DNA from: an uncultured Bauldia sp.
Lineage (GTDB): Bacteria; Pseudomonadota; Alphaproteobacteria; Rhizobiales; Kaistiaceae
DNA: 41,804 bases
Direction: 5' to 3'
Assembly (NCBI GenBank): GCA_964402985.1
Contig: CAYOET010000132.1
Span: 1 to 41,804, forward strand
The translations under genes were made by a program, and so were the position numbers. Positions within the stretch are counted from its first letter, which is position 1; each line of letters starts with the position of its first letter. The notes below the pieces were generated by a model. That model had not been told where the DNA came from and did not search any database. It saw only the letters and a list, made by a program, of their open reading frames with translations. This document shows, piece after piece, positions 31,456 through 41,804 of the stretch.

Positions 31456-31640
31456 GTGCACCCTCGCGTTCGGAATTGGCACAGGAGCAAGGTTTGACGG
31501 TGGTAAAGGTTGCATTGTCAAAGCCGTAGCGGCCGGGCTATGCCCTTTCCTCGCCTCAAATATGAGGCACCTGCCGCTGGGCGGCGCCAAAACGGTTGTC
31601 GTGGGATTGGCGTATGCTGCGTAAACGAGTGGGATCGGTC

Positions 31641-32276
31641 ATGCTGTTCGTGAAGTCCGCGCCTGTTCTCCTCTGTGCCGCGCTGCTCGCCGGCTGCAGC
31701 GGCTTCGGAGCGATCAGCTTCCCCGGCTTCGGCGGCGATCAGGCGACCGCGGCCGGCCAGGTCCCCCCCGGCAACGCCGCACCGGCCGGAATCGTCGAGA
31801 CCACCGAACTGCCCCCGCTCGTCGGCCAGGCCGAGGGCGCCGATCCGTTCCTCTATCCCGACCCGGCCACGGCGGTCGCCAGCGCCGGCGCCTTCCCCTC
31901 GACCGATCCGACCTTGACCGGTGGCCTGCCCGGCACGCCGAGCTCCGACCTCGCCCTTGCTGCCACACCGCCAGCCGGCGGTCCGGTCGCCGACATCACC
32001 CGCCCCGACCTTCTCGGTGCGTGGACGCTCACCAACGGCACCGAATCCTGCCAGCTTTTCATGACCTTGACGACCTGGACCGGCGGTTATCGCGCCTCGA
32101 CCCGCGGCTGCACCTCGACCACGCTGCAGTCGATCTCCGCCTGGGACCTCAACGGCCAGCAGGTCGTGCTCGCCGGCACCGAGGGTCTGGCGGTCGCGCG
32201 GCTGTACTCCTCCGGCTTCAACCGCTTCGACGGCCAGACCGAAACCGAAGCCGCGACGCTCAGCTTCTTCCGCTGA
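31641..32276 (+). CDS. outer-membrane lipoprotein, protease-inhibitor Inh/Omp19 family
   Basis: ORF 31596..32276, start taken at MLFVKSAPVLLCAALLAGC (lipobox LAGC). Pro/Ala-rich linker, then a C-terminal Inh/Omp19-like barrel (GAWTLTNGTESCQLFMT...GCTSTTLQSISAWDL). Confidence 0.65.
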   Translation: MLFVKSAPVLLCAALLAGCSGFGAISFPGFGGDQATAAGQVPPGNAAPAGIVETTELPPLVGQAEGADPFLYPDPATAVASAGAFPSTDPTLTGGLPGTPSSDLALAATPPAGGPVADITRPDLLGAWTLTNGTESCQLFMTLTTWTGGYRASTRGCTSTTLQSISAWDLNGQQVVLAGTEGLAVARLYSSGFNRFDGQTETEAATLSFFR

Positions 32277-32326: not shown

Positions 32327-33346
<1,020 letters not shown>

Positions 33347-33347
33347 C

Positions 33348-34541
33348 GTGGACCTCCACGAGTTCCAGGCCAAAGCGATCCTCCGCGAGTACGGCGCCCC
33401 CGTCCCGCGCGGCATGGTAGCCTCCAACGCCGATGAAGCGCGCAAGGCCGCGAGCGACCTCGGCACGCCGGTCGTCGCGGTGAAGGCACAGATTCACGCC
33501 GGCGGCCGCGGTAGGGGCCGCTTCAAGGAGACGGCGGCCGGCGCCGGCGGCGGCGTCCGCATCGCCAAGTCCGCCGATGAAGCCGCCAAGGCCGCGCGCG
33601 AAATGATCGGCAACACGCTGGTCACGCTGCAGACCGGCGCGGCCGGCAAGAAAATCCGCCGCGTCTATGTCGAGGAAGGCACCGACATCGCGTCGGAGCT
33701 TTACGTCTCGCTCCTCGTCGACCGCGCCCGCTCGCGGGTTGCCTTCGTCGTCTCGAAGGCGGGCGGCATGTCGATCGAGGACGTCGCGCATCACACGCCC
33801 GAGAAGATCGTCTCCTTCGCGATCGACCCGGCCTCCGGCTTCATGCCCCATCACGGCCGCCGCTTCGTGGCCGCCCTCGGCCTCACCGGCGAGGCCGCCA
33901 AGGAAGGCGCCAAGGTCGCGGCCGCGCTCTACCGCGCGTTCCTCGACAAGGACATGAGCCTTCTCGAGATCAACCCGTTGGTCGTCACCAAGGCCGGCCG
34001 TCTCGTCTGCCTCGATGCCAAGCTCGGCGTCGACCCCAACGCCCTCTTCCGCCACCCCGATCTCGTCGCGCTCCGCGACGAGAGCGAGGAGGACCCGCGC
34101 GAGATCGAGGCCGCCAAGCAGGACCTCGCCTATATCGCCCTCGGTGGCACGATCGGCTGCATGGTCAACGGCGCCGGCCTCGCCATGGCGACCATGGACA
34201 TCATCAAGCTCTACGGCGCCGAGCCGGCGAACTTCCTCGACGTCGGCGGCGGAGCGTCCAAGGAGAAGGTGACGGCGGCCTTCAAGATCATCACCGCCGA
34301 TCCGAAGGTGAAGGGCATCCTCGTCAACATCTTCGGCGGCATCATGCGTTGCGACACCATCGCCGAAGGCGTCCTCGCCGCGGTGCGCGAGGTCGGCCTG
34401 AAGGTCCCGCTTGTCGTCCGCCTCGAAGGCACCAATGTCGAGCTCGGCAAGGAAATCCTCGCCGCCTCGACCCTCAACATCATCTCCGCCGACGACCTCG
34501 ATGACGCCGCCCAGAAGATCGTCGCCGCGGTGGGAGAATAG
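33348..34541 (+). CDS. sucC: succinyl-CoA synthetase beta subunit
   Basis: 397 aa, GTG start. [16 protein letters not shown] and [15 protein letters not shown] are present. Confidence 0.95.
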
Positions 34542-34547
34542 CGACGC

Positions 34548-34593
34548 TTGATGGGTCGCCATGCTCCACATATTATGTGTGACTGCGGAGCAT
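34548..34593 (+). promoter_or_regulatory. sigma-70-like promoter with overlapping operator palindromes for the toxin-antitoxin pair
   Basis: TTGATG (34548-53), N17, TATTAT (34571-76). The palindrome CACATA-T-TATGTG (34567-79) overlaps the -10. An outer inverted repeat ATGCTCC...GGAGCAT spans 34561-67 and 34587-93. Confidence 0.5.
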
Positions 34594-34603
34594 GGAGATT
34601 GCC

Positions 34604-34834
34604 ATGAAGAACATCACTTTGGCCGTGGACGAGGCCGTCCTCGAACAAGTCCGCAAATACGCTGCCAATCATCAGACGACGGTGAATGCACTCGTTCGCC
34701 GGCACCTCGAGCAGATCGCCCGCAACGAAACCCGCGTTAAGGAGGCGATGCAGGAGTTGCGTGAAATGAGCAACAACTCGACGGCGCGGATGGGAAAGCG
34801 CACTTGGAAGCGAGACGATATCTATGATCGTTGA
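34604..34834 (+). CDS. VapB-like antitoxin (probable ribbon-helix-helix type)
   Basis: ORF 34592..34834. The start at 34604 ([21 protein letters not shown]) is preferred because GGAGA lies 5 nt upstream. 76 aa, with an 11-nt overlap with the PIN gene. Confidence 0.65.
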
Positions 34835-35237
34835 TTGCTTCCTCGACTCCAACGTTCTGGTCTACGCCGCGGCTGGACGTGAGGACGAGGAAGAAAAACG
34901 CGTACGCGCACGCGATTTGGTCGAGGAATCGAACTTCGCGATTTCCGGCCAAGTCCTTCAGGAATTCTTCGTCGTGGTCACGCGAAAGCTCCCCACTCCG
35001 ATGCCGGCGGCAGAGGCTGCCGAGTGGGTCGACCGCCTTGCTCTGCGGCCGCTGCTGCCGGTGGACGCACAGCTCGTGCAATCGGCCATAACGATCTCGA
35101 GGAGGTTCCGGGTCTCGTATTGGGACGCCGCAATCATCGCGGCGGCACAGGCCCTCGACGCCCCTATCCTCTACACCGAAGACCTCAACCACGGTCACAC
35201 GATCGCCGACGTCCGGATCGTGAATCCCTTCATCTAG
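34824..35237 (+). CDS. vapC: PIN-domain ribonuclease toxin (VapC-like)
   Basis: 137 aa. Acidic PIN residues lie in the expected contexts: D8 (FLDSNVL), E47 (QVLQEF), D101 (YWDAAI), E119/D120 (YTEDLN). Confidence 0.75.
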
Positions 35238-35256
35238 CGGTCACCGACGCGAGCCC

Positions 35257-36141
35257 ATGCCCATCCTCATCGACCACACCACCCGCGTCATCTGCCAGGG
35301 CATGACCGGCGCGACTGCGACCTTCCATACCGAGCAGGCGCTCGCCTACGGCACCGAGATGGTCGGCGGCGTCACCCCCGGGAAGGGCGGCAGCACCCAT
35401 CTCGGCCTGCCGATGTTCGATACCGTCGCCGAAGCCAAGGCCGTGACCGGGGCCGACGCGTCGGTGATCTACGTCCCTCCCGCCTTCGCGGGCGACGCGA
35501 TCCTCGAAGCGATCGACGCCGAGATCGCCCTCATCGTCGCGATCACCGAAGGGATTCCCGTCCTCGACATGGTGCGCGTTCGGAGAGCCCTCGACGCCTC
35601 CAAGAGCCGGCTCATCGGCCCCAACTGCCCCGGCCTCGTCACCGCCGGGGCCTCCAAGATCGGCATCATGCCCGGCTCGATCTTCTCGCCCGGCTCGGTC
35701 GGCATCGTCTCCCGCTCCGGCACGCTCACTTACGAAGCGGTGTTCCAGACCACCCGCGCCAAGCTGGGCCAGACCACCGCCGTCGGCATCGGCGGCGACC
35801 CGGTGCGCGGCACCGACTTCATCCCCATCCTCGAGATGTTCCTCGCCGACGACGCGACGCGGTCGATCATCCTCATCGGCGAGATCGGCGGCTCGGGCGA
35901 AGAGGACGCCGCGCAGTTCCTCAAGGACGAGGCCCGTGGCGGCCGCCGCAAGCCGGTCGTCGGCTTCATCGCCGGCCGCACCGCGCCTCCCGGCCGCCGC
36001 ATGGGCCATGCTGGCGCGATCGTTGCTGGGGGCAAGGGCGGTGCGGACGAGAAGATCGCCGCGTTCGAAGGCGCGGGGGTCAAGGTTTCCCCCTCACCTG
36101 CGCGTCTGGGGCAGACCTTGGTTGAGCATTTGCAATCTTGA
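35257..36141 (+). CDS. sucD: succinyl-CoA synthetase alpha subunit
   Basis: 294 aa with [17 protein letters not shown] and phospho-His motif GHAGAI. Confidence 0.95.
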
Positions 36142-36228
36142 GTTCCGCTGCCCATTTCTTTAGTGATTTCGGCCCCACGATGCGGCAGTTCGCCGCGCCG
36201 GCCTGATGCCTGAAAAGCCACGAGAAAA

Positions 36229-39195
<2,967 letters not shown>

Positions 39196-39225: not shown

Positions 39226-40503
39226 ATGGCCAAGGAAATCCGCGTTCCCGTCCTCGGTGAATCGATCACCGAGGCGACCATCGGCCAGGTCTTCAAGAAG
39301 GTCGGCGACACGGTCGCCGCCGACGAGCCGCTCGTCGAGCTGGAGACCGAGAAGGTCACCGTCGAGGTCCCCGCGCCGGCCACCGGCGTGATCGAGGAAC
39401 TCCTCTTCAAGACCGGCGACACCGTCCCGGTCGGCGCTCTTCTCGGCATGATCAACGAGTCGACCGAGGTGCGCGTGAAGCCGACCGCGAAGGCCGAGGC
39501 TCCGAAGGCCGCGGCAAAGGCGTCCGCCCCCGCTGCGGCAGCTCCGGTCGCAGCACCCGCGGCCAAGCCCGCCCCGGCCCGTCAGCCGGCTCCGGCCGCT
39601 GCCGGCGACACGCTCGCCCCCTCCGTCCGCAAGCTCGTCGCCGAGCACAACCTGCAGCCCGAGGCCATCGCCGGCACCGGCAAGGACGGCCGCATCACCA
39701 AGGGCGACGCCCTCGCCGCCGTGGCCGCCAAGGCCGCGCCTGCCGAGCGCCCTGTCCCCAGCCTGGTCCCGGTCTCCGACATCCCGACCGCGCCCGACCA
39801 GTCCCCGCTCGAGCAGCGCGTGCGCATGACGCGCCTCCGCCAGACCATCGCCCGCCGCCTCAAGGAGGCGCAGGACGTCGCCGCCATGCTCACGACCTTC
39901 AACGAGGTCGACATGAGCGGCGTGATCGGCCTCCGCAACCAGTACAAGGACCTGTTCGAGAAGAAGCACGGCGTGAAGCTCGGCTTCATGAGCTTCTTCG
40001 TGAAGGCCGCGATCCAGGCCCTCAAGGAGGTCCCGGCGGTCAACGCCGAGATCGACGGCGAGGACATCGTCTACAAGAATTACTACCACATCGGTGTCGC
40101 GGTCGGGACCGAGCGCGGCCTCGTCGTCCCGGTCATCCGCGACGCCGACAAGATGACCCTCGCCGAGATCGAGACCGCCATCGCCGGCCTCGGCAAGCGC
40201 GCCCGCGACGGCCAGCTCGGCATCCCCGACATGCAGGGCGGCACGTTCACGATCTCGAACGGCGGCGTCTACGGCTCGCTCCTCTCGACGCCGATCCTCA
40301 ACGCCCCGCAGTCGGGCATCCTCGGCATGCACAAGATCGAGCAGCGCCCGGTCGTGGTCGAGGGCCGCATCGAGGCGAGGCCGATGATGTATCTCGCGCT
40401 CACCTACGACCACCGCATCGTCGACGGCCGCGAGGCGGTCACCTTCCTGGTGCGCGTCAAGGAAAGCCTCGAGGACCCGCAGCGCCTCGTTCTTGACCTA
40501 TAG
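39226..40503 (+). CDS. sucB: dihydrolipoyllysine-residue succinyltransferase (E2o)
   Basis: 425 aa with a lipoyl domain ([13 protein letters not shown]), Ala/Pro linker, E3-binding domain and catalytic DHRIVDG. Confidence 0.95.
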
Positions 40504-40536: not shown

Positions 40537-40971
40537 ATGGCCGACGAACCCAATCCCGCTCCAATCCAGGTCTACCTGACAGTGAAGGGAGCGGACGCCG
40601 CGGCGAAATTCTACGCCAAGGCCTTCGGCGCGGTGGAGACGCAGCGCCAGGTCGCCGAAGACGGGAAGCGTCTGATGCACTGCACGATGGCACTGTTCGG
40701 CTCGGGCATCATGTTCTCCGACGAGTTCCCCGAGTTCGGCATGAAGGACGTGGCCTCGCCCAAGACGCGCGGCGGCGCGAGCGTGACCATCCACGTCAAC
40801 CTCGAGACGCCCGAGGAGGTCGACACCGTCATGGCCAACGCCAAGGCCGAGGGCCCCGAGATCACCTTCCCAGCCGACCGTATGTTCTGGGGCGCTTATT
40901 ACGGCAAGCTCCTCGACCCCTTCGGCCATTCCTGGTCCTTCGCCGCCCCCGCCCCGACGCCGACGGCGTAG
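40537..40971 (+). CDS. VOC / glyoxalase-bleomycin-resistance fold protein (PhnB-like)
   Basis: 144 aa. The pattern YLTVKGADAAAKFYAKAFGA...MHCTMALFGSGIMFSD...FWGAYYGKLLDPFGHSW is typical of PhnB-like VOC proteins. Confidence 0.7.
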   Translation: MADEPNPAPIQVYLTVKGADAAAKFYAKAFGAVETQRQVAEDGKRLMHCTMALFGSGIMFSDEFPEFGMKDVASPKTRGGASVTIHVNLETPEEVDTVMANAKAEGPEITFPADRMFWGAYYGKLLDPFGHSWSFAAPAPTPTA

Positions 40972-40974
40972 CCG

Positions 40975-41226
40975 ATGCCGACCGTTGCGATCGTCGATGG
41001 CGTTCGCATCGTCTTCTACGTGAACGAGCATCCGCCGGCGCACTTCCATGCGCTTTTGGCGGAGCACCGGGTAAGCGTTGACATCGAAACGCTTGCTATA
41101 CTCAACGGGTCCTTGCCGAAGGCAAAGGAGCGAATGGTGCTGGAATGGGCGCGAGAACACCAAGACGAGCTGCGGATCGCGTGGAACCGCGTGGCGGACG
41201 ACCTGCCACCGGGACGGATCGAGTGA
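40975..41226 (+). CDS. DUF4160 family protein
   Basis: 83 aa. VRIVFYVNEHPPAHFHA....VDIET..IL.GSLP....R.V.EWA.EH..EL matches the DUF4160 pattern as I remember it. Confidence 0.7.
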   Translation: MPTVAIVDGVRIVFYVNEHPPAHFHALLAEHRVSVDIETLAILNGSLPKAKERMVLEWAREHQDELRIAWNRVADDLPPGRIE

Positions 41227-41513
41227 GCGGCGTCCTCCGGCTGACAGCCGTGGACCCGGTTATTCACGGCGTGCTCCGGCTCGTCTGGGACGACGGCTAT
41301 GAGGGCGTCCTCGACCTCCGGCCGGTCATCGCCCGAGGCAAGCTCCTCGCGCCGCTGCGAGACGTTGCCACGTTCGCCAAGGTGCAGCTCGACCCGCACG
41401 GTCACAGCATCTCCTGGCGCGGCCCTGACGGCGACGAAATAGACTTCGGTGCCGACGCTCTCCGCGCCGACACCGAGAAGCAAGCCAGGCTCCACGAACT
41501 GGTCGGTCACTGA
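41223..41513 (+). CDS. DUF2442 family protein
   Basis: In frame within ORF 41145..41513. GTG start at 41223 gives a GTGA overlap with the DUF4160 stop. The pattern [26 protein letters not shown]...FA.V.LDP.G.SI.W is DUF2442-like. Confidence 0.65.
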
Positions 41514-41533: not shown

Positions 41534-41804
41534 ATGCCCACTTACGACGTCGCGGTGATCGGCTCCGGGCCGGGCGGTTATGTCTGCGCGATCCGCGCGG
41601 CGCAGCTCGGCTTGACGGTGGCGGTCATCGAGAAATGGCCGACCTTCGGCGGCACCTGCCTCAACATCGGCTGCATCCCCTCGAAGGCCCTCCTCCACGC
41701 CTCGGAGCTCTTCGAGGAGGTGAGCCATCTCGGCGATTTCGGCGTGAAGGTCGGCAAGCCGAAACTCGATCTGCCCGGCAGGATGGGTCACAAGGACAAG
41801 ACGG
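41534..41804 (+). CDS. lpdA: dihydrolipoyl dehydrogenase (E3), N-terminal 90 codons (runs off the right edge)
   Basis: ATG at 41534 gives [34 protein letters not shown]...[16 protein letters not shown], covering the FAD fold and the redox-active CxxxxC. Confidence 0.9.

Follow-up and report, generated by a model that had tools for sequence, protein, structure and literature searches.

A probable FitAB/VapBC-like toxin-antitoxin module as an accessory passenger of the sucC-sucD junction in an uncultured Bauldia species

Between sucC and sucD in the 41,804-nucleotide stretch of uncultured Bauldia sp. DNA analysed here (the window) lies a two-gene cassette that is probably an intact type II toxin-antitoxin (TA) module of FitAB/VapBC-like character, carried at this junction as an accessory passenger. 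Judged from its sequence, the module is probably functional. What is new is the recurrence of one TA lineage in the sucC-sucD slot across alphaproteobacterial lineages: the literature searched contained no mention of DUF6364 or of the phrase 'between sucC and sucD', and that on sucC, sucD and toxin-antitoxin described no such module.

Gene layout, promoter and operator

The gap between sucC and sucD measures 715 bp (34542-35256) and holds two small open reading frames oriented with the operon. The preliminary description had reported genes of 76 and 137 codons overlapping by 11 nt, and both were recovered exactly where it had placed them. The features of the locus are as follows.

32381-33346, plus strand: mdh
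33348-34541, plus strand: sucC, succinyl-CoA synthetase beta subunit (Pfam ATP-grasp_2, 9.5e-71; Ligase_CoA, 1.6e-34), the upstream flank
34548-34553, plus strand: -35-like hexamer TTGATG; in relatives, TTGnnn recurs 16-18 nt upstream of the -10
34561-34570, plus strand: left arm of the outer inverted repeat, ATGCTCCACA, pairing with 34584-34593 at 9/10 positions
34567-34579, plus strand: putative core operator palindrome, CACATATTATGTG, its core invariant between the window and the related locus L081
34571-34576, plus strand: -10 hexamer TATTAT, 17 nt from the -35 and inside the core palindrome
34582-34587, plus strand: degenerate third half-site ACTGCG (ACTGTG in relatives)
34584-34593, plus strand: right arm of the outer inverted repeat, TGCGGAGCAT, which holds the degenerate third half-site
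34594-34598, plus strand: Shine-Dalgarno (SD) sequence GGAGA of the antitoxin gene, 5 nt before the ATG (anti-SD pairing -6.4 kcal/mol)
34604-34834, plus strand: antitoxin gene, 76 aa, DUF6364, probably ribbon-helix-helix (RHH)
34824-35237, plus strand: toxin gene, 137 aa, VapC-type PIN domain, starting 11 nt inside the antitoxin end
35238-35256, plus strand: 19-nt spacer from the PIN stop to the sucD start, without recognisable SD and without terminator
35257-36141, plus strand: sucD, succinyl-CoA synthetase alpha subunit (Pfam CoA_binding, 3.9e-29; Ligase_CoA, 1.7e-23), the downstream flank
36229-39195, plus strand: sucA
39226-40503, plus strand: sucB

Because the homologues of the antitoxin all begin with MKNIT, its start was placed at 34604, and an alternative ATG at 34592 was rejected. 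The arrangement is that of a type II TA module, with the antitoxin gene first, the two genes co-oriented, and an 11-nt overlap that is also kept in L081, L089, L173 and L087. Across the cassette the GC content falls from ~0.68 to 0.56-0.61, and GC3 is 0.72 and 0.76 in the two genes as compared with 0.86-0.94 in the other identified genes of the window, a range that leaves out a DUF4160/DUF2442 module downstream of sucB (0.76 and 0.83). These measurements bear out the earlier impression of a cassette richer in A/T than its surroundings, also at third codon positions.

The DUF4160/DUF2442 module is a second small two-gene unit in operon orientation; its upstream neighbour is a glyoxalase-like gene (40537-40971) following sucB, and downstream comes lpdA, which starts at 41534. 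The first gene of the module encodes the DUF4160 protein (40975-41226, E = 5e-18), and the second, for DUF2442 (~41223-41513, E = 4.6e-6), has a probable GTG start at 41223 that overlaps the DUF4160 TGA. With GC3 values of 0.76 and 0.83 against ~0.9, these genes are outliers too, and as a second case they suggest that the junctions of the mdh-sucCDAB-lpdA operon in general tolerate such passengers. Directly upstream of mdh is a gene for an Inh-type protease-inhibitor-like secreted protein (31596-32276); this Inh to mdh-sucC neighbourhood is kept in the distant TA-bearing locus L089, where an AFG1 ATPase gene precedes mdh. Rfam and tRNA scans of the window returned no matches.

Only one sigma-70-like site, TTGATG-N17-TATTAT (34548-34576), was found in 3 kb, where 0.3 would be expected by chance; it is the promoter that had been pointed out before. 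The palindrome described as lying across its -10 is there as well, nested in an outer inverted repeat that proved longer than first reported, with nine of ten positions paired. Two paired changes separate the arms of this repeat in the window from those in L081 and leave the repeat symmetric. The core palindrome has further CACAG/CTGTG half-sites on its flanks, and half-sites are kept in L089, where antitoxin identity is 59%. The symmetric outer arms would fit an operator for a dimeric repressor, or a hairpin. A hairpin is predicted for the outer repeat (z ~ -2.1 in the window and in L081, -2.9 in L089), although RNA folding cannot tell it from operator symmetry because a DNA palindrome gives the same fold. 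The idea that such a hairpin hides the antitoxin SD in read-through mRNA was rejected, since the real SD (34594-34598) lies just outside the repeat.

The arrangement goes with the TA family, in suc and non-suc copies alike. When the 80 nt upstream of the antitoxin start were taken as the leader, CACA-N5-TGTG was present in 23 of 62 family leaders, against ~0.001 expected per leader from a background of three matches in 279 kb of the same loci. By best promoter match, 13 of 20 leaders have their -10 set exactly 4 nt into the palindrome, and all but one of these 13 have a TTGnnn hexamer 16-18 nt upstream. Since a promoter-like site and palindrome are conserved wherever the TA family occurs, the cassette appears to bring its own promoter and putative operator, as the preliminary description had proposed; a palindromic operator over the module's own promoter is, at the level of sequence, another type II TA trait found here. 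In five non-suc loci of a sister clade (L103, L104, L108, L111 and L116), a -10-like hexamer ends ~6 nt before the antitoxin ATG, a spacing that would give a leaderless or near-leaderless mRNA; the suc-embedded copies would have a ~20-nt untranslated leader with an SD.

No plus-strand terminator was found in 33300-36300, including the interval from sucC to sucA. Terminator-like sites number three in this 3-kb region against 1.6 expected; one of them, a hairpin with a T-run on the minus strand in the 5' part of the PIN gene (34898-34914), is probably a chance occurrence. In Rhodobacter sphaeroides, sucCDAB is one operon, served by a promoter upstream of sucC (PMC4323418). As the cassette has no flanking terminator, transcription from the operon promoter probably continues into it as well, and sucD-sucA-sucB probably receive transcription from the cassette's own promoter.

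The junction, its cargo and the recurrence of the cassette

The sucC and sucD genes had been taken to be almost universally adjacent, a view that does not hold for Alphaproteobacteria. We surveyed 80 species-representative alphaproteobacterial loci (L001-L080) and obtained the spacing from 71, sucD not lying within the sequence fetched downstream of sucC in the other nine, which are mostly Sphingomonadales-like. The two genes are 10 nt or less apart in 23 of the 71 loci and 11-149 nt apart in nine, whereas in 39 they are separated by 150-2639 nt with unrelated cargo. The cargo includes DUF1579, cupin and methyltransferase genes and many family-less signal-peptide or membrane proteins, and about 15 single-ORF cargo genes start no more than ~4 nt from the sucC stop. 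For small cargo genes of Alphaproteobacteria, the sucC-sucD junction is a general hot spot. That a textbook-tight junction is a frequent landing or retention site bears on operon annotation and on assumptions of translational coupling.

An empty site among close relatives had been suggested as the mark of an accessory insert, and such a site exists. The close relative L179 (SucD 86%, SucA 88%) has a gene-free 92-nt spacer with no relic of the cassette, and L178, which is sister to the TA-bearing L081 (197/200), carries another ORF at the junction, ending in TAATG at the sucD start. L177 was dropped as a close relative with different cargo: its ranking came from a mis-called 358-aa ORF, and it is Bradyrhizobium-like, with SucD 77% identical to that of the window. 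No SucC above 71% identity to that of the window was found in the genome-collection scan, so the window's own lineage is poorly sampled.

Across ~11 distinct loci in at least three host clades, the TA lineage is located between sucC and sucD. Besides the window these loci, which were retrieved by PIN similarity alone, are L081 (PIN identity to the window 86%), L089 (65%), L093, L173 and L174 (60-62%), and L100, L118, L136, L142 and L153 (42-51%); in L081, L089, L173 and L174 the partner gene likewise carries a DUF6364 annotation. In L173, L093 and L100 another cargo gene lies between sucC and the antitoxin gene. Family members elsewhere are found in L087 (between yebC and ruvC), L175, L176 and L094, and a metagenome scan gave mostly distant homologues among the matches listed. 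Order-wide conservation at the junction had been named as a sign of a fixed operon member rather than an insert; the cassette does appear old and recurrent at this slot, but its distribution is patchy and not fixed across the order.

Neighbour-joining trees of these short proteins, in which the PIN clades are only moderately supported, resolve the suc-embedded PIN copies into two adjacent clades (143/200 and 99/200); L087 and L176 are the only escapes nested among them. On the host side, the SucD tree joins the window to L081, L178 and L179 (200/200), and L089, L093 and L173 form a second clade, all of it TA-bearing (200/200). L174 and L100 are placed among hosts of the Phyllobacterium/Roseibium type (200/200) and L118 among those of the Bradyrhizobium type, in each case with neighbours whose sites are empty. 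The L174 PIN belongs to clade B, and its host joins the window clade in 0/200 replicates. Because host and cassette trees partly disagree, and because presence and absence are polymorphic among close relatives, at least one transfer of the cassette into the same slot is likely. We also considered transfer by homologous recombination through the sucC 3' and sucD 5' flanks, which found no support at this sampling: by sliding-window identity, the flanks of L174, L118 and L100 resemble those of their host relatives and not of the putative donor clades. Even distant hosts share 80-90% identity over the 3' third of sucC.

Two further loci are of note in their own right. On the L087 contig (4187-6078), a Phd/YefM antitoxin and PIN toxin pair lies between ruvC and ruvA, in a conserved operon, alongside the non-suc DUF6364-like/PIN copy. 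In L154 (1-2902), a distant PIN homologue (41%) is ~590 nt from a divergent sucC-like/sucD-like pair, whose genes are 48-52% identical to those of the window and may represent a paralogous CoA ligase.

The age and constraint of the cassette can be gauged against L081, a Bauldia sp. MAG (order Hyphomicrobiales, family Kaistiaceae) that has the same cassette in the same slot. The antitoxins are 92% identical in amino-acid sequence (dN 0.055) and the PIN proteins 86% (dN 0.077), as compared with 88%, 89% and 91% for SucC, SucD and SucA (dN 0.062-0.078). The dN/dS ratios of 0.07 for the antitoxin and 0.076 for PIN indicate strong purifying selection on both genes. Divergence at four-fold sites is 0.45-0.49 in the cassette, 0.46 in the glyoxalase gene and 0.23-0.28 in the suc genes, which are codon-biased. 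Since the cassette has diverged from L081 as far as the flanks and the glyoxalase gene have, it is at least as old as the split between the two lineages, and the recent arrival implied by the preliminary description does not agree with these values. Taken with its patchy presence, this portrays the cassette as a long-standing but dispensable passenger in a cargo-collecting junction.

The start of sucD differs with the content of the junction. At empty sites, its SD is embedded in the last codons of sucC, and the sucC stop overlaps or abuts the sucD ATG. In 10/10 TA-bearing junctions (the window, L081, L089, L093, L100, L118, L142, L153, L173 and L174), sucD begins 10-27 nt (once 88 nt) past the PIN stop, has no recognisable SD, and is preceded by C-rich bases. 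The median anti-SD pairing of sucD is -2.5 kcal/mol at the TA-bearing sites (n = 10), as opposed to -8.0 kcal/mol at empty sites (n = 26) and -5.8 kcal/mol at sites with other cargo (n = 44), differences with Mann-Whitney p = 3e-5 and 1e-3, respectively, among loci that are not phylogenetically independent. This loss of the SD raises the prospect that sucD may be translated by termination-reinitiation after the toxin ORF. However, some of these operons also have weak SDs for sucA and sucC, which makes the translational-coupling idea a weak one.

It is conceivable, if doubtful, that the DUF6364-PIN lineage is specialised for the sucC-sucD junction, reaching the same slot in unrelated alphaproteobacteria by some targeting or recombination route and entrenched there by the loss of the sucD SD. 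Were this so, sucD would need the toxin ORF to be translated, the TA promoter to be active, or both, and an enzyme of central metabolism would be tied to a selfish module. The consistent loss of the sucD SD behind the toxin gene makes entrenchment by coupling a testable hypothesis. A TA module alone would be a routine VapBC/FitAB-like one and of little weight by itself; an uncharacterised DUF6364 TA lineage strongly tied to one slot across host clades offers a clean natural system for studying how chromosomal TA modules come to settle and persist where they do.

The pair might, alternatively, have been domesticated, serving the suc operon and no longer acting as a selfish TA module. The RHH protein might regulate an internal sucD-sucAB promoter, the PIN protein might process the polycistronic mRNA, or translation of the PIN ORF might deliver ribosomes to the SD-less sucD. 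The occupation of one slot in so many loci and host clades, the strong purifying selection, the long residence, the uniform lack of a sucD SD and the lack of a terminator between cassette and sucD are all in keeping with such a role. Nevertheless, we consider it unlikely: close kin with the same operator and promoter are found in unrelated places (L087, L175, L176 and L094), the close relative L179 does without the cassette, the PIN of this family was found in 0/80 of the species-representative loci, so that most alphaproteobacteria do without it as well, and weak SDs are not unique to sucD in these operons.

The two proteins and the ends of the cassette

Profile searches agree with the PIN/antitoxin pair that had been proposed from the letters. 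The 137-aa protein matches Pfam PIN (PF01850) with E = 7.5e-15 and 56 bits, against a cutoff of 23.6. An alignment of 30 homologues shows no variation at four acidic positions canonical for PIN domains (D8, E47, D101 and E119/D120), so that a PIN toxin with its acidic active-site residues, as expected of a VapBC/FitAB-type module, is found here. Its AF2 model (pLDDT 95) gives PcrIIC1 as the best Foldseek match (TM 0.82), followed by VapC20, Shigella VapC, FitB and others.

The 76-aa protein matches Pfam DUF6364 (PF19891) with 2.4e-8 and 34.8 bits, above the gathering threshold of 27.3. There is almost no variation at its N-terminus (MKNITL, followed by two predicted helices). Sub-threshold matches to Pfam FitA-like RHH, RHH_1, CopG and CcdA (E = 0.006-0.06), together with marginal matches of the family profile to Arc, AvtR and CopG-family RHH proteins in the PDB (E = 0.002-0.09), point to what is probably a ribbon-helix-helix fold; a single-sequence AF2 model, one long helix with pTM 0.48, was uninformative. 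PADLOC defence-system models matched neither cassette protein.

By analogy with VapBC and FitAB, the antitoxin would dimerise through an N-terminal ribbon-helix-helix and, alone or with the toxin, would bind the CACA/TGTG half-sites straddling the -10 and repress its own promoter. Its C-terminal tail would wrap and block the PIN toxin, a presumed Mg2+-dependent ribonuclease, and degradation of the antitoxin would leave free toxin to cut RNA and arrest growth.

A different possibility is that the PIN/RHH pair is non-toxic, with the PIN protein serving as a protein- or nucleic-acid-binding accessory, as with PcrIIC1. PcrIIC1, which is not a classical toxin, is the sole match in a sequence-profile search of the PDB (E = 4e-7) as well as the best fold match. 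Moreover, the curated NCBIfam models score far below their cutoffs for both proteins (TIGR00028, VapC family, 19.4 bits against 73.6; NF050181, mycobacterial VapB, 15.2 bits against 60). We regard this possibility as quite unlikely, given the invariance of the four PIN acidic positions across the homologues and the classic TA layout of an overlapping upstream RHH-like partner with a self-operator; furthermore, the fold matches that follow PcrIIC1 comprise dozens of genuine VapC toxins as well as FitB (TM 0.6-0.75).

The hexamer CGACGC, which had been noted on both sides of the cassette, does occur at both places; its occurrence there is best ascribed to chance and not to target-site duplication. 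Although the flanking copies and the lower GC3 of the cassette could be ascribed to a recent transposition-like insertion duplicating a CGACGC target, such an event is very improbable in view of the number of copies in the window, which does not exceed chance (101 observed, 118 expected, with a third copy inside the PIN gene at 35156), the absence of the hexamer from the junctions of the orthologous L081 cassette, a divergence from L081 equal to that of the flanks, the lack of any transposase or integrase gene near the cassette, and a family with no member in the phage collection and only 12 weak matches on plasmids, at 43% identity or less. Neither a non-random repeat kept at orthologous junctions nor nearby mobility genes, as would mark a transposon-like element, were found.

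Comparison with known systems

In its layout, the cassette resembles FitAB of Neisseria gonorrhoeae, in which the RHH antitoxin FitA and the PIN toxin FitB are bound to their own promoter palindrome (PDB 2bsq). In both cases, a small antitoxin, of RHH type in FitA and probably so in the cassette, is encoded upstream of a ~140-aa PIN toxin, and the promoter of the module contains a palindrome, in the cassette a putative operator; the toxin model aligns to FitB with TM 0.68, and the antitoxin has the weak FitA-like_RHH Pfam match (E = 0.006). However, identity is only ~18%, the cassette antitoxin belongs to the uncharacterised DUF6364 family, its half-sites are CACA/TGTG, and its context is a TCA-operon.

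The comparison with canonical VapBC modules (Shigella MvpAT/VapBC, M. tuberculosis VapBC20, Rickettsia felis VapBC2 and Caulobacter VapBC1) rests on the PIN fold (TM 0.6-0.75), the four acidic residues, the gene overlap and a presumed autoregulation. These modules are not matched by the cassette in the PDB sequence-profile search, and it falls far below the NCBIfam VapC and VapB cutoffs. In most of these modules, VapB has an AbrB/SpoVT or other fold rather than RHH.

The nearest solved relative of the toxin, at E = 4e-7 and TM 0.82, is PcrIIC1 (PDB 8wmm), a pro-CRISPR factor of type II-C Cas9 systems. The two proteins are the same size and share a C-terminal VNPF(L) motif. PcrIIC1 is a PIN-superfamily protein that acts as a Cas9-bound dimer and enhances DNA binding and cleavage (PMC13153721). 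It has no RHH partner gene, and there are no cas genes near the cassette in the window.

Finally, the cassette shares its slot and orientation with the other cargo of the junction, that is, with DUF1579, cupin and methyltransferase genes and those for small secreted proteins. The ~15 single-ORF cargo genes look translationally welded into the operon, unlike the TA cassette, which alone among the cargo types seen here is preceded by a 62-nt leader with what appear to be its own promoter and operator.
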